A DNA stretch of 64,000 nucleotides from a virus, in IMG/VR virus record IMGVR_UViG_3300049793_000099, positions 1 through 64,000 of that record. One strand, 5' to 3'. The translations under genes and the position numbers were made by a program. The stretch's first letter is position 1. Every line of letters starts with the position of its first letter. The notes under the pieces were generated by a model, which saw only the letters and a list, made by a program, of their open reading frames with translations, had not been told where the DNA came from and did no database searches. Positions 3,940-27,316 of the stretch are shown one piece after another.

Positions 3940-4218
3940 TTATTTGATTTCATTTTTAATTTTAAATTCTTCCCATTCAACTCTTGATAACAAATTGGGA
4001 AAACGTTCTTGGTTACAAGATTGAGATGTGTAAATTCTTGCAGGATAATCACAACCACACTTAATGCATTTTTTAGTTTTAGCACAATCATTCTCACATA
4101 ATAACATTCTGTAAGCAAATTGTTCTTTAAGATGGCTTACTTGAAACTTCTCAGTAAATAATCTAGTATTACCTTCTATAAAATTATAAATATTAGATAA
4201 TGTTATTTCTTTACTCAT
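3940..4218 (-). CDS. Cys-rich putative metal-binding protein
   Basis: CENDC...CIKCGC...C. Confidence 0.6.
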   Translation of the reverse strand: MSKEITLSNIYNFIEGNTRLFTEKFQVSHLKEQFAYRMLLCENDCAKTKKCIKCGCDYPARIYTSQSCNQERFPNLLSRVEWEEFKIKNEIK

Positions 4219-5351
4219 TACCTAATCTACTAAGTATTAAACTTTTCTCCATTGAATCTAAATCTCTACCAATTAACTCTGGTACAATAGAATCAATGTT
4301 ATCTTCTGTTACTTTATCTTCTAATGTTTTAAGATAATCAGATAATTCATTAATCTGCCTTAACTTAGTATAAAATGTTTTAACTTGTTTCTTAGTATTA
4401 AGTTTATCTAAAACATTTTTCTTTCTAATTCCATTTTTGTTATATGTACGCATTTTTATAAATTCTTAAATTTTAAATATTTAGGATTCTCCTTACTCCA
4501 CTTGGTTCTATACCCTTCTAATTCATTGTCTGTTTTAGTTGGGAATATATTTCTCCAATATTCTAATTCTTTGGGATTATTTTTACTATTCATATATACT
4601 GTATTTTTTTCAATATTAATATCTTCTTCAGTTCTTAAATCTATAAGTTCTCCGTTTTTCATTAAAAAGTAGTATTTAAAATTTTAGTATCTATTATCGT
4701 ATCTCCAGTTTTATTAAATAATATATGTTTCTTAATGTAACCTGTCTTATTTCTAGCAAAAATTTGAACTGTTGGTATATTACCATCACCTAGAAATAAT
4801 CCGACGTTTAGATCATTGATTCTACAACCTCTCCACTTCTTAGTATAATGGTTACACATATTAAAAATATCTTTTTGATTATCTATAATATGATTTTCTA
4901 TTTCTGTAACTTTATTTTGTATATTTATCAGCATCTTTTGTGTTTTGTTTATATCTATTTACGCAATGTATTATTTCTTCTTTTGTTAATTTTGGCATAT
5001 AATAAGATTTGTCTATTGTACCTATATTAATTTGTTCAATTCCATTTATAAAAACTGGGTTTTCAATATTCCATTCATCACAATAATATTGTGTATTATC
5101 TTCTTCCATTATAGTGTTTCATTATATCTATTTAATAGAAAGTTAGTAAAATCATAATTATTAAATACTCCATTTAAATCAATATACATTCTAATATCTA
5201 TTGATGATTTATCTGGTAAAGTTACTCTACATTTTTCATATGTTATTAACTGTGACCAATTTTCAAATCCAATAGGTTGTTGATCATTATAAATAACTTC
5301 TATAGGAAAACAACATTCTGTTTCTAACTTATTATATTTTACACCTGTCAT
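4211..5351 (-). CDS. Run of five small hypothetical ORFs (4211-4453, 4456-4662, 4662-4934, 4912-5109, 5109-5351)
   Basis: Overlapping or abutting start/stop codons, downstream of the promoter at 5375. Confidence 0.6.
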
Positions 5352-6086: not shown

Positions 6087-6635
6087 TTATTTATTTAAAT
6101 TGTTAATTTTCAATCTTTCGAAATCTTTTCTATATAAAACTACATCATCTCCTTCTAATATTCTTTTAATTTCTTTAGGATTGAGACCTAGTTCTTTATA
6201 TTTAGAAACCCAGTTATCATTTTGCTTTTTAAGTTGTTCTATTAAAATAGTATAATCTAACATAGTTTTTCTAAAACTACCTTCGATAGATCTATCACCT
6301 AAATGAAATAATATCCAATCCAAATCTTCACACAATATAATCTCTTTCTTACATTCAAATAAAAGAAAAGTTCCTGCTGATGCAATATAACCAGTTAGAT
6401 ATATTTTAATATCTGGATGATTATTAATAAAATGCAATAGTATTCTCATTGCATGTGGATTACCACCAATAGTTGTAAAAAATAAATCAATTGCTTTATA
6501 TTCAGTTAATTTATCAATTAATTCTTGTACTGTTTCAGAATCTATTTCGTTTTCGAAATGATGTACATATCTTTGAATTTCTTCTGATGATTCTAATTCA
6601 TCTAACAAAGCATTTATTAAATCTTCCTTCACCAT
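6087..6635 (-). CDS. clpP: ClpP-like serine protease
   Basis: T.GG, GYIASAGT (catalytic Ser), ILFH (catalytic His). Confidence 0.75.
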   Translation of the reverse strand: MVKEDLINALLDELESSEEIQRYVHHFENEIDSETVQELIDKLTEYKAIDLFFTTIGGNPHAMRILLHFINNHPDIKIYLTGYIASAGTFLLFECKKEIILCEDLDWILFHLGDRSIEGSFRKTMLDYTILIEQLKKQNDNWVSKYKELGLNPKEIKRILEGDDVVLYRKDFERLKINNLNK

Positions 6636-9072: not shown

Positions 9073-9652
9073 AACTAAATTATACAAATTATGTCTTTAA
9101 AACTAACATTATTTACAAAAGATGCCAATTGTACTGATATAATATCTGTAGAAATAGCACATTTTACAAACTTTGATAACAAAAACAGCTATCATTGTCA
9201 TCTAATTGATGAACAAATTAAACTTGTTACAGCATTAACAATTAATAAAATATCATTTACTGTAGAATTTGGAAAAGTATTTATTGATGAAACTAGTATT
9301 AAAGTTAGACTTGATTCAAAATAACCAATTCAATTAAGTTATTCTACATATATTTACACACAATTTATTACAAATTTAAACTAATTACTAACTGACTAAA
9401 TAACAAAATTATGGAAACAAATTATATTCCACATTCATTAATTATTAATATTGTCCCTGGAAACATCGCAAGTTTTATAATATGGATTAATACCACAGAA
9501 GGAACTTATGGTTCTAATAATAGCTTTACTACTAATAGTAATGGTATTACAGGAATTTTCATTAAAATATAACAACACTTTAGTCAGTCAATTACAGATA
9601 ATGCTGGGTTGACTGATTATATTAAACTAATAACTAAATTATACAAATTATG
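9073..9652 (+). repeat. Identical 21-mer AACTAAATTATACAAATTATG at 9073-9093 and 9632-9652
   Basis: Exact duplicate, each ending in a start codon. Confidence 0.85.
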
Positions 9653-10387
9653 AAAAACTTAGACAAATTTATTATCTATATATCCATTAAATTATATGGT
9701 AAACGACAACTAATGTGGACATTTCAATAACTAAAATATATAACTATGAAAAAATATATAATTTATACAATAATATCTGGACATACTTATATAATCTGTT
9801 TAATAAATGGCAAACCATCTGTAAAAAATAATCCATCAGATGATCAAATTATGACATTTGATGATTATGATAAAGCTAACACTATTGCTAAAAAAAATAA
9901 TAATAATGATGTAACTTATAAAGTTAAAGAAATCAATACGTAACATTATGTCAACATATTCAAATAATCCACAACAAAATAAATGGGAAATATGGTTTTT
10001 ATCATCAGTAACTATATTTATAGTAATATTAATAATAATAACATCTATACCATTAGAACAATTACCTATATGGTATGATGCACTAACATTAGCATCCTTT
10101 ATTAATTTAATATATTGTATAATAATAGGTTCAAGAAAATGATAACTGAATCATTTCAAAATTATAAAGGTTACACAATTAGATTAAGAGCAGTAACTAA
10201 TAATGGTTTTACATATGATATTATTAAACAAAGACCTAATATAACATCACCAAATGGTATTAAAAATATCTATTTAAAAAAAGTATCATATTGGTATATT
10301 AAACCTGATGAATTATTAAATAAAGCTAAAAATTATATTGATAATTTTGAAAATAATTTAATTAATAAATATAATAAATCTAATTAA
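9091..10387 (+). CDS. Small early ORFs (9091-9324, 9650-9730, 9746-9943, 9948-10142 membrane, 10115-10387)
   Basis: A-rich start motifs; 9948-10142 has two hydrophobic segments. Confidence 0.55.
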
Positions 10388-11218: not shown

Positions 11219-11295
11219 AATAAAATAACTACGGACGTGGATAGAAATCCTAGCAGAAAGTCACATTATAGTAAGTCTTCGTTATGTGAGAAAAT

Positions 11296-11331
11296 AAACC
11301 ACTGGAATTAATAATTAGTTCTAGTGGTTTT
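11296..11331 (+). terminator. Long hairpin just upstream of the tmRNA
   Basis: aaaccactggaattaa/ttagttctagtggttt. Confidence 0.6.
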
Positions 11332-11347
11332 ATAATAAAATAAATAA

Positions 11348-11710
11348 GGGGGTGACAGGTATTGATACGTGCATAATAATTATATAATTCAGCAGAAATA
11401 GGTGAAAGTTCATTAAATTGAACATTGTTGAAATGACAAAAATCAAATAGTTGCCAATATGCAAGTAGTTCATAACATCTTAAACGGTGGAACTATTGAA
11501 GCTAAATCTGATATTATCTTAGATAAATTAGAATTAGCAGCATAATTAAATAGATTAGAGTAATCTAATCGAACTCAAACTATAGAGTAATTTAGTATTT
11601 CTCCACATTTAGTATTATTTAAGGGAGATTAAAGATTAAAATATACAATAAGCTGTATAAAATTATATATTAAAAGTAAAGTAGACCGGACTTCAATGTC
11701 CGCACCTCCA
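11348..11710 (+). ncRNA. ssrA: tmRNA (SsrA), 363 nt, CCA not encoded
   Basis: Acceptor GGGGGTG/CACCTCC-A with G3:U70, T-arm CGGAC/GTCCG, internal reading frame 11453-11545 ending LELAA-stop after an AAATAGTT-GCC resume context. Confidence 0.92.
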
Positions 11711-12200
11711 CTAACTAACTAATTATTAATTAGTTATAAAGAAAGCTGTTACTTGAGTTAGCACTAGGACAGTAACTATTATCAGAGGAAGCTAATCTCT
11801 TGGATAATCCTGCAGGTTGTGACCAGTACACATAAAAAGACTTCTACCAGTTAGAATAAGTATACACCGTTATGGTTAAGTTCTGACATTTTTTTAAATA
11901 AATAAAATCAAAAATAAAACAGTCCGTGTAAACTGTGAATAAATAATACTTAGTGCAAATGTCTAGCACCCTTATCAATAGATGTAACAATTATAAGCAT
12001 TTATAATCAAGTATTAGAGATGTTTCAGAAATGAATTATAACAAATCGAGAAATAGATTATAATGTAAGCATAAAACTTATAATTGGGGAAATATAAATT
12101 GACAACTTACAGTGTTATTTTATAAAAATTATAAATAAAAAATTAAATTCCAATTATTAATATGCGAAATAAAGTGTCCTTAAATGGTCAATAACTGAAT

Positions 12201-12303
12201 AATAATTATATAATGTTGCTAGGCTTGTAACCTAGAAATGGAGGTTTAAATCCTCGTGCTACAACTCAGAAATAGTGAGCATTAACATAATAATATAATT
12301 ATT
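12201..12303 (+). ncRNA. tRNA-Thr(UGU)-shaped element in permuted order
   Basis: CTAGG-CTTGTAA-CCTAG arm, GAGG-TTTAAAT-CCTC arm, closing stems. Confidence 0.4.
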
Positions 12304-12402
12304 GAAAAGGTTAAATATTACATAAGTAAAACTAAATCTGATATTCTTAAATGAATACAAAACCTATTGTGGAATAATAGTAAGCAATAGTTATAAATAT
12401 AA

Positions 12403-12440
12403 AAAAAAGGTTTTTAATATATTAATTAAAAACCTTTTTT
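12403..12440. terminator. Bidirectional-type hairpin
   Basis: aaaaaaggtttttaat/attaaaaacctttttt. Confidence 0.6.
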
Positions 12441-12468
12441 AAATTAAAAACAACTAAATATTAAAATT

Positions 12469-12858
12469 ATGAACACAGAAAAATTTACAACAGTTACTTA
12501 TACATTAGAAAATGATACAAAAATTGTACAACCCATTAACAAACAAGCTTTTATTAATGAAAAAGGTCGTAAAAGAACAGAAGGAGAATTTCATAAATTA
12601 TTTACAGACACCGCTTGGGATAAAAGAGCTATTTCATATACAATTGATTCTGAAACAAATGAATCGTTGTCAAAAGAAAAAGAAATTCATTTCACTAAAA
12701 ATGAAAAAAAAGTAACTAAAAGAGATTATAATGATTTCAAACAATCAAATCCAAACGGATTTAAACAATCATTGAAATCTTTTCAAAAACAATTTGTTGA
12801 TTCAATTACAAATTGTAAAAGAATCAGAATAAATATTGGTAATATAATTTTACAATAG
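12469..12858 (+). CDS. Hypothetical protein
   Basis: AACTAAA...AATTATG start motif. Confidence 0.7.
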   Translation: MNTEKFTTVTYTLENDTKIVQPINKQAFINEKGRKRTEGEFHKLFTDTAWDKRAISYTIDSETNESLSKEKEIHFTKNEKKVTKRDYNDFKQSNPNGFKQSLKSFQKQFVDSITNCKRIRINIGNIILQ

Positions 12859-13402: not shown

Positions 13403-14705
13403 ATGCGAAAAGATATAATATTACCTAAAAATCCAACAAATCAAGATGTTGAGGATTATTATAAATTGAGTCAAAATTATACAAATTTTTTTGAAAAAAG
13501 AAATTATAATATTGGTGATAAAATAATAATTAGTGATAATCCTTGTTCAATGGCATGTGGATGTTATTGGAAAAATAATGAACATGATAATTTTATAAAT
13601 CCAAATGAAATATACACGATTAAACATATTCATTATTTTGGAGGAGGTTGTCCACCAACATTATTAGAAATTAAAGAATTGCCTCAAACACATTCTTATG
13701 ATACTGCAATTAATGCAAATATATTTAAGGTGATTTAATTTAATTAAAACTAAAAAATATTATGAATCAAAATAAATTTTCAATCTATATAATTTGTGCT
13801 TTTACACATTTTATGTGGTTTTATATAATGGAATTAACAACTCCATTTCAAGTAAGAAATTCAGTAACTATAAACGGAAATTTTATTGAATTAATAAGAT
13901 AAAAAAACTAACAAAACTAAAAATTATGACAACAATTACAACATTACAAAAAGCAGGTTATAAAGGAGCTAAAATAACTTCTATGGTTAAAGCTATTGAA
14001 TCTCAAGAGATATTTAAATATTTGAGATTAGTTCAACAAAATGAATTTAGTAAATTAAAAAATACTTATAATAAAGTTGGTTATTTAACTCAACCTTATT
14101 ATAGTTATCTTTGGCAACTTTATTGGAATTTTGTATTAAATGATTTTAGATTTGATAATAAATCTAAAGATTGGTCAATTCCTACTAAAATTAAAAAAGT
14201 TGAACATCAACATATTGGTATGAAAATATTACATAATGTGTAGTTTACAATTCCCTAATAGTGAAATAGTTTATACTCATCTTTGGAATAGAATAGATTT
14301 AAATAACAGTTTAAAAAATAACTAAATTATGGAAATAGATAAATTAGTAGAAGAATGTAAAGAATTTTTTAAAAAAAGTTACATTAGAAAAACTAATTTT
14401 GAAAATGATTTAATGGAATTATTAGATGAAGAAATTATTACATTTGAAGAATATAAACAAATAACTAAAAATAAAGAATTATGGAAACATTTATTACAAT
14501 ATTGATAGTATTAGCAACTATAATTATCTGTTATTATATTAATAGATATATAGTAAAAGTTGTTAATAAAACTAATTACAGTTGGGAAGAAGTTAAAACA
14601 AATTTATTAATGAGTATATTTATACCAGTATCATTTATATATTGGATAATATATTTAGTAAATATTATACCTTCATTACCAGAGAAGCCACCAAGATGGT
14701 TATAA
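13403..14705 (+). CDS. Small early ORFs (13403-13738 Cys-rich, 13762-13902, 13926-14243, 14481-14705 membrane)
   Basis: Open frames with A-rich start motifs. Confidence 0.6.
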
Positions 14706-14720
14706 ACTAATTAAAAAAAT

Positions 14721-14790
14721 AGAACGGAAGTGTATTGGTAGCACAGGTTAAATACTTAACAAAGTGGAAGGTCGATTCTTTCACGTTCTC
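14721..14790 (+). tRNA. tRNA-like element with collapsed anticodon loop (pseudo-tRNA)
   Basis: AGAACG/CGTTCT acceptor, GTGT-ATTGGTA-GCAC D-arm, GTTAA-ATAC-TTAAC (4-nt loop), GGAAG-GTCGATT-CTTTC T-arm. Confidence 0.6.
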
Positions 14791-14864
14791 AAACTATGTT
14801 TCATAATATGTAGTTTTTAGTTAGTTAATTTGAACCCTATCAGAAATGATGGGGTTTATTTTTT
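14791..14864 (+). ncRNA. Putative ~70-nt sRNA antisense to translation-initiation regions
   Basis: Reverse complement of 14797-14831 is AAATTAACTAACTAAAAACTACATATTATGAAACA; ends in a terminator. Confidence 0.5.
14833..14864 (+). terminator. Intrinsic terminator with GAAA loop
   Basis: aaccctatca-gaaa-tgatggggtt followed by tatttttt. Confidence 0.85.
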
Positions 14865-15092
14865 AACAAACTATATTATGAATAATAAAATAATAAATAA
14901 TAACTAATTAATAAAAATTATGGAATATATTAAAAAAGAAGATTTAAAAGATAGTGAAATTTATAAAACATCAAATGGTTATATATTTAAATATTTAGAT
15001 AAAAATGATAAAATATAATAATAATTTAAAATCTAAAACCTCATATAAAGGATGGTTAGATCATTGTAACAGTATAAATTTAAAAAGAAAAT

Positions 15093-15629
15093 ATGAAAAC
15101 TATTAAAATTAAAAAAAAAGAATTTCAAAAATTATATGATATTGCATGTAATCAATGGCAACCAATATTTCAAGAAAAATTTAAAGAATTTTTATTTGAA
15201 GATTATATTGAATTTGATGAATCATTTTTATTAAAAATGCAAAAAGCTTGTACAGATCCACAATTAAAAGTATTTAATGTAATATTTAAACCTTATTTGG
15301 AAGAAGTTATAGATTTATTTAGTATAAATACTTATAAAAAAGTTTGTAAATAATTAAAAGAAAAAATGGAAATTTGTCCATTTAGAAAAATTAAACAAAT
15401 TGAGAAATTATTTAATGATAATTGGAAAGTAAACCTTACAGATCCAAATCAAGCAAAATATTATCCTTATTTTGAAATAAAAAGTTCTGGTTTGGTGTTC
15501 GGTGGTTCTAGCTACAGCTACTGCAGCTTTTTTGGGCGGGTTGCCTTTTACAAAGATAGTAAAACCTCTGATTTTGTTGGTAAAACATTCTTAAAAGAAT
15601 ACGAAGAATTTGGAAATTACAAAGGTTAA
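15093..15629 (+). pseudogene. DGR target gene interrupted by an in-frame TAA (15351-15353)
   Basis: The two track ORFs share a frame and only LKEK separates them; the C-terminal W...D.NQ.KYYPYF...F.GK.F region carries the VR. Confidence 0.7.
15483..15546 (+). repeat. DGR variable repeat (VR)
   Basis: 64-nt copy of the TR with 16 mismatches, all at TR adenines. Confidence 0.92.
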
Positions 15630-16302: not shown

Positions 16303-18282
16303 ATGAATAAAAAATTATATGTTTTTGATTTGGAGACATACCCTAATTTCTTTCTAGCAGTATTTAAATGTATTATTACGAGTGAGTATCATTACTTTGA
16401 AATAAGTGATAGAAAAAGTAATCAAATCAATTTAAAAAAATTTCTCAATGAGCAAGTTAAAGGTTTAATAGGTTTTAATAATCTTAATTTTGATTATCCA
16501 GTATTACATAATACTATATTAAAATCAAATAAACTTTTAACTGCTCAAGAAATTTATAAAGAAGTTGAAACTATTATCAATACTAAATATTCAGCTATTT
16601 GGGATAATCAAATTAAGATACCTCAATTGGATTTATATCGTATTTGGCACTATGATAACAAAAATAAAAGTACATCACTTAAATGGCTTGAATTTGCTAT
16701 GAGATTACCTAATGTTGAAGATTTACCATATAAACCTGGTACAATTTTAACATTTGATCAAATGGATGAAATTATTAGTTATTGTAAAAATGATATTGAA
16801 GCTACTGAGAAATTTTATAATCTTAGTTCTAAACATATTGAAATTAGAAAATTTTATACTCAATTAGAAGATATGAATTTAATTAATGCTTCTGAGATTA
16901 AAATGTCTAAAGAAATCTTTGGTAAATATTTATCAAAAGAAATGAAAATAGACATTAAAACTCTTTCTAAATTAAGAACAGAACGTTCTGAAGTAATTAT
17001 TAAAGATATAACATTCGATTATTTAAAATTTGATGATCCACTTAATCAAGAAATATTAGAAAAATTCAATTCATATAAATGGATTGATACATCTAATATA
17101 TCTAAAGAACAAGCTAAAAAATATTCAATCTCTTTTAGTAGAAATTATAAAAATGTAATTAGAGAATATGCTGAAGGTGGATTACATTCATTTGGTAAAG
17201 CTGGTATATATGAATCAGATAATGATTATGTTTTAGTTGATGTAGATTTTGCATCATATTATCCTCATATATCATTTAGAAATAAATTACATCCAGAACA
17301 TATTCCAGAACCAATTTTTAGTAACATTTATGAAGGATTCTATAAAGATCGTAAATTATATGATAAAAAAGATCCTCGTAATTATGTATTAAAAATTATT
17401 CTTAATGGTAGTTATGGATTATCTAAAGATAAATACGCATTTTTATATGATCCGAAATGGCAATTAGCAATTTGTATTAATGGTCAATTAATGTTAACAT
17501 TATTAACAGAAAGGGTATTTGAATATTGTAAAATAGAACCAACTATTATATTTGAAAATACAGATGGAGCAATGTATAAAATATATAAATCAGATTATGA
17601 TAATTTAACTAAAGCTTGTAAAGAAGTTGAAGAAATAGTTAATATTCCTTTAGAAACACAAACTTGTGAAAAAATTATAATTAGAGACGTTAATAATTAT
17701 ATAAACATTATTAACTCTGATAGTATTAAATTTAAAGGTTGTTTTGAAATAGATAGAGACTATCATAAAAATCATTCTAAAAGAATTGTATCAATTGCAT
17801 TAGCTAATTATTTTATTAATAATATATCAGTTGAAGATACTATTTATAATCATTTAAAAAAAACTAAATATTCATTTTGTGAAAATTATGGAATATATGA
17901 TTTTTGTTTAGGTGCTAAAATGAAAGGTAAAAATGAATTAATTCAAAGGTATTGGAAAGCTTATGATTTAATTGAAGAATCTTTATCTAAAATGAATAGA
18001 TATTATGTATCTAATATTGGTGTTGAATTGATTAAAAAATTACCACCATTAGAAAAACATTATCTAACAGAAACTGATAAATATAAACTAAAATTTGATC
18101 CAAATCAAATAAATATATTTGATATTATTGAAGATATTAAAATTGATGCTGAAGATAGAGATGAAAATCTAGAAGCTGGTTACAAATGTACATTATTTAA
18201 TAAATATAAAGAATATGATTATGATTTAAATTATGATTATTATATTAAAGAATGTTACAATATTATTGATAAACTTAAATAA
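16303..18282 (+). CDS. polB: Family B DNA polymerase (crAss-type)
   Basis: Exo motifs FDLET, GFNNLNFDY, YCKND; Pol motifs DFASYYP, KIILNGSYG, NTDG. Confidence 0.95.
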   Translation: MNKKLYVFDLETYPNFFLAVFKCIITSEYHYFEISDRKSNQINLKKFLNEQVKGLIGFNNLNFDYPVLHNTILKSNKLLTAQEIYKEVETIINTKYSAIWDNQIKIPQLDLYRIWHYDNKNKSTSLKWLEFAMRLPNVEDLPYKPGTILTFDQMDEIISYCKNDIEATEKFYNLSSKHIEIRKFYTQLEDMNLINASEIKMSKEIFGKYLSKEMKIDIKTLSKLRTERSEVIIKDITFDYLKFDDPLNQEILEKFNSYKWIDTSNISKEQAKKYSISFSRNYKNVIREYAEGGLHSFGKAGIYESDNDYVLVDVDFASYYPHISFRNKLHPEHIPEPIFSNIYEGFYKDRKLYDKKDPRNYVLKIILNGSYGLSKDKYAFLYDPKWQLAICINGQLMLTLLTERVFEYCKIEPTIIFENTDGAMYKIYKSDYDNLTKACKEVEEIVNIPLETQTCEKIIIRDVNNYINIINSDSIKFKGCFEIDRDYHKNHSKRIVSIALANYFINNISVEDTIYNHLKKTKYSFCENYGIYDFCLGAKMKGKNELIQRYWKAYDLIEESLSKMNRYYVSNIGVELIKKLPPLEKHYLTETDKYKLKFDPNQINIFDIIEDIKIDAEDRDENLEAGYKCTLFNKYKEYDYDLNYDYYIKECYNIIDKLK

Positions 18283-26723: not shown

Positions 26724-26750
26724 TAATAAATTAGAGATTCAATCTCTGGT

Positions 26751-26922
26751 GGTTGAGTGACTGAAAGGGTAAGGTTAATCAGTAGAAGGAGAGCTTACAC
26801 GACAAGTGTTGTGGGAACTACTTAGGACAGTGTTGTAAGAATAGCCAATAAATAGGTATTAAAACGAGGCGTACATGTCACGCCTATCCTCTACAGTACA
26901 GGTTCGAATCCTGTCTCAACCT
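26751..26922 (+). ncRNA. tRNA body (Cys-like) with a ~120-nt domain replacing the anticodon arm
   Basis: Perfect GGTTGAG/CTCAACC acceptor, U73, ACAGG-TTCGAAT-CCTGT T-arm, TGACTGAAAGGGTAAGGT D-arm. Confidence 0.75.
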
Positions 26923-26953
26923 CAATATTAACTAAAATTAAAAAATTATAAAA

Positions 26954-27316
26954 ATGATAGATTTACAACAATTAGGTTTAGAAATAATTAAAAATAATAT
27001 ATCTCAAAAATGTAGAATTTCATTTAAAGATACTTGGTTTACATTTTATACAGATTGTTCAGGACAAAGAGGTCATTATGTAATGACTTATAAACCTTAC
27101 GATCATAAAATTATAGAAAATCATTATATTATAAAAAGACATTTATCCTTTACAAATGAAATAGATATTGGTAAAGACAAAGCTATATTAGGAATACTTA
27201 ATTTAGAAAAATGTAAAATTATTAATATACAGAAAGATAAAATAGAATTTGAAAATTTTATCTTTCATTTATATGATAATAATAGTACGCAAGAAATTAA
27301 TTTTGAATATATTTAA
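26954..27316 (+). CDS. Hypothetical protein
   Basis: ORF track. Confidence 0.55.
   Translation: MIDLQQLGLEIIKNNISQKCRISFKDTWFTFYTDCSGQRGHYVMTYKPYDHKIIENHYIIKRHLSFTNEIDIGKDKAILGILNLEKCKIINIQKDKIEFENFIFHLYDNNSTQEINFEYI

Follow-up and report, generated by a model that had tools for sequence, protein, structure and literature searches.

Genome context of the element

The virus analysed here is represented by a complete record of 96,910 bp with terminal repeats and a G+C content of ~24%. The window, i.e. the whole stretch of DNA that we analysed, comprises its first 64 kb. On its minus strand it has three giant ORFs, a crAss-type DNA polymerase is encoded at 16303-18282, and among cultured phages Cellulophaga phage phi14:2 (Crassvirales) is the closest relative. 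The element is located among small plus-strand genes 5' of the polymerase gene. By analogy with phi14:2, this region upstream of the polymerase would constitute an early, replicative module. Early genes of crAss-like phages are transcribed by a virion RNA polymerase. The gene immediately upstream of the element stops at position 14705, which leaves a gap of only 15 nt before the tRNA-like body with which the element begins. Given this short distance, the RNA is probably part of the early transcript.

At the 3' side, a sigma-70-like promoter sequence is found on the plus strand at 14863-14891 (TTAACA, 17-nt spacer, TAAAAT). It scores 10/12, is the best promoter-like site in our scan, and is kept together with the following mini-ORF-like stretch in the related contigs L002, L003, L013 and L021. 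It is the probable start of the next transcription unit. The gene that follows the module (14920-15018) encodes 32 amino acids, which include roughly the N-terminal 28 residues of a protein that measures 413-506 aa in L021, L003 and L004; the remainder of this protein is missing from the window. Elsewhere in the genome, Bacteroidota-type TAnnTTTG boxes (TATCTTTG or TACCTTTG) lie ~25-32 nt 5' of the starts at 6635(-), 5351(-), 22192(+) and, in genome coordinates, 75480(-). These boxes are probably host-type promoters of non-early genes.

Anatomy of the element

The element opens with an anticodon-less tRNA-like handle (14721-14790, plus strand), which folds at minimum free energy into a cloverleaf with acceptor, D, 'anticodon' and T arms. 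In the acceptor stem, positions 14721-14726 pair with 14784-14789, and the discriminator is C14790. The elbow nucleotides are present in the D loop (AUUGGUA, with its GG) and in the T loop (GUCGAUU, with U-C-purine-A), both of which are identical in L002. The 'anticodon' arm has a stem of 5 bp, capped not by a 7-nt anticodon loop but by one of 4 nt, AUAC (GUAC in L002). ARAGORN called no tRNA gene for the handle at default, -ps or -ps80 settings, and the Rfam tRNA model RF00005 gave no match to it at E<=10.

The handle is followed by hairpin 1 (14791-14816), whose 9-bp stem is formed by 14791-14799 and 14808-14816. Its loop is the octamer UUCAUAAU at 14800-14807, complementary to AUUAUGAA. A plus-strand mini-ORF in this hairpin was considered as a candidate and rejected, as it is not conserved. 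A single-stranded linker (14817-14830) comes next and contains the box UAGUUAGUU (14818-14826), which is complementary to a leader box, AACUAACUA. In the minimum free energy and the centroid structure alike, the octamer and the linker box are predicted to be unpaired, and the pentamer UAGUU occurs three to four times across the 3' arm and the linker. The element ends in an intrinsic terminator (14831-14864), with a 12-bp stem (14831-14858), a GAAA loop and a T-run (14859-14864). This is the sole terminator found in 14300-15100, where shuffled sequences lead to an expectation of 0.0, and the fold of the tail has a z-score of -4.9. An earlier note, made from the letters alone, had described a tRNA-like body, a tail antisense to gene starts and a terminator, all on the plus strand. 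The fold and the terminator scan agree with that description, and the module is kept in relatives.

Conservation of the module in related phages

To collect relatives, 20 loci were fetched through polymerase homology and without use of the box motifs. Homologues of the module occur in the same place and on the same strand in L002, L003, L004, L005, L006/L018, L013 and L021. A pattern scan with both boxes and part of hairpin 2 as the query yielded 13 further contigs; L108, which stems from a pattern scan, again has the module in the same place and on the same strand. In total, the module is present in at least 25 related crAss-like phage contigs, which bears out the earlier note's suggestion to look in relatives for both boxes followed by a terminator. 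The invariance of the boxes in pattern-found copies is by construction, so that only the polymerase-derived loci form an unbiased set in this respect.

The 5' element of the module is variable. It is a tRNA-Glu, -Asn, -Pro (twice), -Leu or -Val gene in six of the 25 copies and cannot be called by ARAGORN in the other 19, yet the acceptor stem and T arm are kept in all 25. In L013 and L003, the acceptor/T-arm body is reduced to a mini form of 59 nt. Where the flanks are comparable (window, L002, L003, L013 and L021), the slot is syntenic and its occupant varies. Such an interchangeable 5' element fits a processing handle and not a decoder. The module is kept where the tRNA no longer decodes, and thus it is not there to serve the tRNA.

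The 3' part shows the reverse picture. Nine distinct aligned copies, which come from homology searches and one motif-only pattern scan, have the same loop octamer and the same linker box, and what never varies in the module is precisely the pair of sequences that are complementary to AUUAUGAA and to the leader box. Among sequencing runs, the stretch itself was found only in the probable source metagenome. In two DNA runs, contigs of relatives span the flanking genes and the equivalent of 14790-14882 and leave out the tRNA-like body; in two RNA runs, they span the neighbouring genes only. The gap at the body would agree with its variability, although we attach no weight to it.

Hairpin 2, which occupies the terminator position, has in most relatives a conserved GAA/AGUA internal loop, a sarcin-ricin or loop-E arrangement, with a variable apical domain above it. 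Examples of this form are L013 (5380-5425), L021, L004 and L149; at least four kinds of apical domain occur, and L039 and L139 have minimal versions. The conservation of the internal loop suggests that it contacts a protein or takes part in a tertiary contact. The window and L126 differ in having a plain GAAA-capped terminator in place of the loop-E hairpin. Having no anticodon and no loop E while both boxes are intact, the copy in the window is the most stripped-down form of the module.

Beyond these contigs, neither the pattern nor the covariance model detected a module in phi14:2 and about ten other relatives, and BLAST searches of GenBank phages with the window region and with a relative's module gave no match. 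The exact T-arm pattern was absent from viral contigs. Scans of viral and metagenome contigs with a 17-mer of the D arm returned mostly coding sequence or ordinary tRNAs, seven of the latter being tRNA-Met, and only L002 as a further handle of the window type. A scan for the T arm followed by the octamer gave four unrelated hairpins among the matches listed. In unrelated contigs from metagenomes and viruses (L169/L197), there is another tRNA-like body that lacks an anticodon; it shares the D arm, has a 10-nt palindrome for an anticodon arm and ends in an encoded CCA.

Selection on the plus-strand structure

Between the window and L002, all 20 base pairs of the handle are kept, compared with 35-55% when the pairing partners are slid. 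Thirteen of the 15 differences between the two handles fall on paired positions, and 12 of these make up six compensatory pairs. From this pattern of substitutions, we conclude that selection acts on the structure of the anticodon-less cloverleaf in the window. Of 23 distinct copies, 22 form the hairpin-1 stem of 6 to 9 bp, and between them they use about 12 different arm sequences; the mean z-score is -5 against shuffled arms, and G-U pairs are present in 15 copies. In the basal stem of hairpin 2, six of ten pairs are compensatory.

These data leave little room for the idea that the locus has no RNA function and that its DNA preserves a relic of a minus-strand promoter or an inverted gene start: the reverse complement does resemble a typical early gene start with its ATG, but the minus-strand ORFs range from 3 to ~27 codons and show no conservation, the G-U pairs of the stem would be A-C mismatches on the opposite strand, the tRNA and the terminator are oriented along the plus strand and the boxes are better conserved than real gene starts, so that we regard a relic as highly improbable. 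An inverted gene remnant had been named in the earlier note as one of the findings that would overturn its proposal. It is disfavoured here because a conserved minus-strand ORF is lacking and the G-U pairs exist only in the plus-strand RNA.

Judged from sequence comparison, the element is a conserved, putative sRNA gene on the plus strand, shared by environmental crAss-like phages that form a clade related to phi14:2, and it represents a real and new RNA family.

The element mirrors the leaders of early genes

A leader of the form AA(Y)AACUAA, followed after ~12 nt by (AUU)AUG, precedes roughly ten small early genes located at 9-19 kb and almost none of the other ~100 genes. The reverse complement of the element matches this motif, AACUAA-N12-(AUU)AUG. 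The leader box is conserved on orthologous early genes, which we grouped into families A (start at 12469), B (13926), C (14481) and D (14920). The same motif is found in relatives in which no module was detected, phi14:2 among them. It is therefore independent of the sRNA and has a function of its own, which we suspect to lie in translation initiation or at the 5' end of the mRNA.

The candidate targets, all on the plus strand, differ in how closely they fit. The start region of ATG 9650 (9620-9661) is identical to the reverse complement of the element at 21 of 25 positions, as the earlier note had counted and as our recalculation reproduced, and its net cofold energy is -15.1 kcal/mol. Family B (13896-13937; ATG 13926, 105 aa) gives a duplex of -19.9 kcal/mol and a net cofold energy of -15.0 kcal/mol; its orthologues retain AACUAA(C) boxes, and the start at 2166 in L018 is a perfect match to both boxes. 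The leader and start of family D, the remnant downstream of the module (14890-14931; ATG 14920), reach 19/25 and -13.6 kcal/mol, and this leader is kept in L013, L021 and L003. For family C, the gene just upstream (14451-14492; ATG 14481, 74 aa), we obtained 19/25 and -12.4 kcal/mol, with the leader kept in L002 and L021. The resemblance to this start had likewise been pointed out in the earlier note; the same score of 19/25 is found at ATG 14920 and at ATG 15840. Family A (12439-12480; ATG 12469, 129 aa) has a net cofold energy of -10.6 kcal/mol, and its leader box is kept in four orthologues. The short minus-strand ORF that would start within the element has seven codons, as previously noted, and reads MKHSLRT.

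As a control for these matches, we used 3000 25-mers from the same genome, each with a non-start ATG at its centre. Only 0.17% of them reach 21/25 to any start, and 0.6% match at least eight starts at 17/25 or better, the level attained by the element. Against 115 start regions, the ten best duplexes of the element have a mean energy of -18.4 kcal/mol, compared with a top-10 mean of -14.4 +/- 1.0 kcal/mol for 200 dinucleotide shuffles, none of which was as good as the element (0/200). In a genome-wide duplex scan, eight of the 40 best windows are gene starts, where ~0.7 would be expected, and many non-start windows of this AT-rich genome attain similar duplex energies. The earlier note had itself cautioned that AT richness inflates chance pairing.

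When the full 74-nt RNA is cofolded with each start, a calculation that charges for the opening of hairpin 1 and in which the terminator stays folded in all models, about 12 starts have net energies of -10 to -15 kcal/mol, against a median of -4.3 kcal/mol over all starts. Nearly all of these starts lie at 9-19 kb. The same enrichment of starts is seen in seven of seven relatives, each with its own RNA and genes, for which 0-2 of 100 shuffles were as good. The comparison of start regions with shuffled controls that had been proposed at the outset therefore comes out positive in the window and in seven relatives.

Divergent relatives

A covariance model of the module (R1) recovered more divergent relatives. 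L010 has a module at 4202-4272 in which the loop octamer is kept and the linker is changed. Its best predicted target leader (start 215) bears the matching change, ACAAACAAA, and linker and target leader together form one apparent case of co-variation. In L009 and L014, a genuine tRNA(CAU) lies upstream; the UAGUU-type linker and the loop-E hairpin are kept, and the loops of hairpin 1 are different. The best predicted target of L014 is again family B. With no CAU loop, these two copies count against a universal anti-AUG role. In the wider family, the predicted linker pairing is the constant feature, and the anti-AUG loop is a trait of a large subclade.

Proposed biogenesis and mode of action

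Building on the observed anatomy, conservation, covariation, strandedness and statistical complementarity of the module, we infer its transcription, its processing by RNase P and RNase Z, its action in trans and the direction of its effect. For both RNase P and RNase Z, the features recognised in a substrate are the stack of acceptor and T arm and the elbow. The handle appears to be reduced to just these needs, retaining the acceptor stem, the T arm and the elbow formed by the D and T loops. A cut 3' of the discriminator C14790 would give rise to an RNA of ~74 nt (14791-14864) with its own terminator at the 3' end. Two constant sequences would be exposed in this RNA, the hairpin-1 loop UUCAUAAU and the linker box UAGUUAGUU, while the variable stretch between them would be buried in the stem. 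The former could pair with AUUAUGAA, i.e. the start codon and its flanks, and the latter with the AACUAA(CUAA) box ~12 nt upstream. Bacteroidota, the host phylum, initiate translation without Shine-Dalgarno pairing. The paired RNA would cover the initiation region and may block ribosome loading on roughly ten early mRNAs, and the outcome would be a post-transcriptional brake on early genes.

Silencing of early genes is the best-supported reading of the element. It is plausible from the logic of the sequences, and we place it just short of an even chance. More tentative is the full model of a 'master anti-leader' RNA, which would be cut at a handle that serves processing only, recognise the shared two-box leader and switch the early mRNAs off together; we consider this a distinct possibility, though one more probably wrong than right. 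The GAA/AGUA loop in hairpin 2 of the relatives, which is absent from the window, is unexplained by an antisense model and hints at a protein partner.

Alternative interpretations

Such a partner may be the actual target. In this scenario, the processed RNA binds a protein and not mRNA, with the UAGUU repeats and, in relatives, the loop-E-like hairpin titrating an RNA-binding protein of host or phage, or the CAU loop acting as a decoy for an enzyme that recognises the anticodon loop of tRNA-Met or tRNA-Ile. In favour of protein binding are the conserved internal loop of hairpin 2 in most relatives, the recurrence of UAGUU in the 3' arm and linker, L009 and L014, where a real tRNA(CAU) lies upstream and hairpin 1 then has no CAU loop, and the D arm of the window, which is that of seven tRNA-Met(CAU) genes in other contigs. 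However, the loop of hairpin 1 measures 8 to 11 nt and not the 7 nt of an anticodon loop, for which reason we kept mimicry of an anticodon stem-loop as a minor rival only. Moreover, the window lacks the loop-E motif and still keeps both boxes, and protein binding leaves unexplained why both boxes mirror gene starts in register. Overall, we consider this explanation unlikely, albeit worth bearing in mind.

The module might also be mere punctuation of a tRNA operon, consisting of a 3' trailer and a terminator. Its boxes would then serve processing or termination, for instance as sites of nuclease entry or as stop codons in every frame, and they would resemble gene starts only because such a motif is widespread in the clade. 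Two observations favour this view: AACTAA is generally enriched on the coding strand, and in TAGTTAGTTAG and its complement each of the three frames contains a stop codon on either strand. Against this, an invariance over 17 nt is abnormal for trailers whose tRNA is swapped or decays, the module persists where the tRNA cannot decode, and the enrichment of start regions exceeds that of the composition controls. Punctuation alone is hence an improbable account of the element.

An action in cis would require the anti-start sequence to fold back on a neighbouring start, either that at 14481 or, upon read-through of the terminator, that of the downstream gene, and would make translation promoter-dependent. 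The geometry is favourable: the upstream gene has a leader with 19/25 identity and ends 15 nt before the handle, and the stretch just 3' of the terminator, which contains the promoter-like site, resembles the complement of the loop and 3' arm of hairpin 1 in the window, L002, L013, L021 and L004. Nevertheless, the downstream gene is only a 32-aa remnant in the window, where the boxes are intact, the strong terminator and the tRNA handle favour release of a separate RNA, and matches that are equal or better lie kilobases away. This too strikes us as improbable.

Lastly, an antisense regulator might have host mRNAs with their A-rich leaders, and not phage early mRNAs, as its relevant targets. 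The seed spans the generic start context AUUAUGAA, and known Bacteroides sRNAs act at such sites, but the second box matches a motif of orthologous phage genes across the clade, which makes host targets very unlikely to be the relevant ones. Silencing of the phage's own early genes remains the reading that we prefer.

Comparison with known RNA regulators

No Rfam family reached its gathering score in the window, and a search of 14600-15000 at E<=10 returned chance sub-threshold hits only. A literature search for Crassvirales with sRNA, tRNA or antisense RNA retrieved no relevant paper.

The c4 antisense RNA of phages P1 and P7 is cut by RNase P from a longer transcript, and two exposed sequences of it pair around the ribosome-binding region. 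Like c4, the element is phage-encoded and has two short exposed sequences for two sites at the initiation region, where its action is proposed. In contrast to it, c4 is itself the RNase P substrate and controls one operon (icd-ant) at Shine-Dalgarno sites, whereas the element would have a separate handle and about ten leaders as partners. The c4 family (RF01695) is not among the Rfam matches.

In Bacteroides thetaiotaomicron, the sRNAs GibS and FopS block initiation by pairing beside the start codon, and GibS has two seeds (PMC11697453). The element resembles them in the host phylum, in a proposed pairing adjacent to the start codon, in an accessible seed (predicted here) and in a complementarity to starts beyond chance. 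Unlike the phage element, GibS and FopS are host-encoded, have their own promoters and primary 5' ends, lack a tRNA handle and target polysaccharide-utilisation genes. They have no sequence or Rfam relationship with the element.

A regulatory RNA that is released by tRNA 3' processing is 3'ETS-leuZ of E. coli, which derives from the trailer of the glyW-cysT-leuZ tRNA operon (discussed in bioRxiv 10.1101/2021.04.25.441314). It shares with the element the principle of a base-pairing RNA from a tRNA trailer that ends at the operon terminator, the release being proposed in our case. In contrast, 3'ETS-leuZ is a host RNA that sponges sRNAs with Hfq, whereas the element has mRNA leaders as its proposed partners and a tRNA that is dispensable as a decoder. 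To our knowledge, Bacteroidota do not possess Hfq.

The handle itself is reminiscent of the t-elements of plant mitochondria, non-decoding tRNA-like structures that are retained because RNase P and RNase Z cut there and thereby set the ends of adjacent RNAs (PMC1920247; bioRxiv 10.1101/2024.09.09.612099). In both, the acceptor/T-arm stack is kept while the decoding parts decay; cleavage of the handle by these RNases is a prediction. The t-elements are organellar and define mRNA ends, whereas the phage handle would define the 5' end of an sRNA.

A protein counterpart is RegA of phage T4, which silences a large number of early mRNAs by binding to the AU-rich regions where their translation starts, whereas the repressor proposed here is an RNA. 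If the 'master anti-leader' model is true, the element would be an RNA counterpart of RegA in the Shine-Dalgarno-independent Bacteroidota, and it would show tRNA genes decaying to t-element-like handles inside phage genomes.

For the step at which crAss-like phages switch off their early genes, a conserved RNA that mirrors the early-gene leader provides a concrete and testable candidate. The module also offers a natural series of tRNA genes turning into anticodon-less processing handles, which bears on the origin of tRNA-like elements. In addition, the leader AACUAA, ~12 nt before the AUG, may be a translation signal in hosts that lack Shine-Dalgarno pairing. As the family is absent from Rfam, it could become a new model there.

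Other tRNA- and tmRNA-like elements

The published transcriptome study of phi14:2 reported highly transcribed 'long non-coding RNAs' in the gap between g004 and g006. These abundant early non-coding RNAs, whose function is not known, lie at other positions than the module. Inside the same gap of phi14:2 (NC_021806; L022), at 4031-4500, ARAGORN calls a tmRNA with a tag ending in LAMVA.

A tmRNA-like gene is also found in the window at 11348-11702, where it was missed by ARAGORN and Rfam. Its acceptor stem is GGGGGUG/CACCUCC with a G3-U70 pair, its tag frame ends in ELAA-stop, its T loop measures 6 nt, and the gene is followed by CUAACUAACUAA. We considered this trailer as a conserved partner of the element and rejected it, since the CUAACUAACUAA box is absent after the tmRNAs of L013, L021 and phi14:2. 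A non-coding stretch of 1.25 kb (11219-12468) includes a weak tRNA-Thr(UGU)-like element at 12196-12264 with an AT-rich, degenerate D arm, which scores 22.5 bits with the Rfam tRNA model, below the gathering score of 29. Finally, in a tRNA-like RNA at 26749-26925, directly 5' of the gene at 26954, the acceptor and T arms are perfect and ~120 nt of inserted sequence take the place of the anticodon arm.
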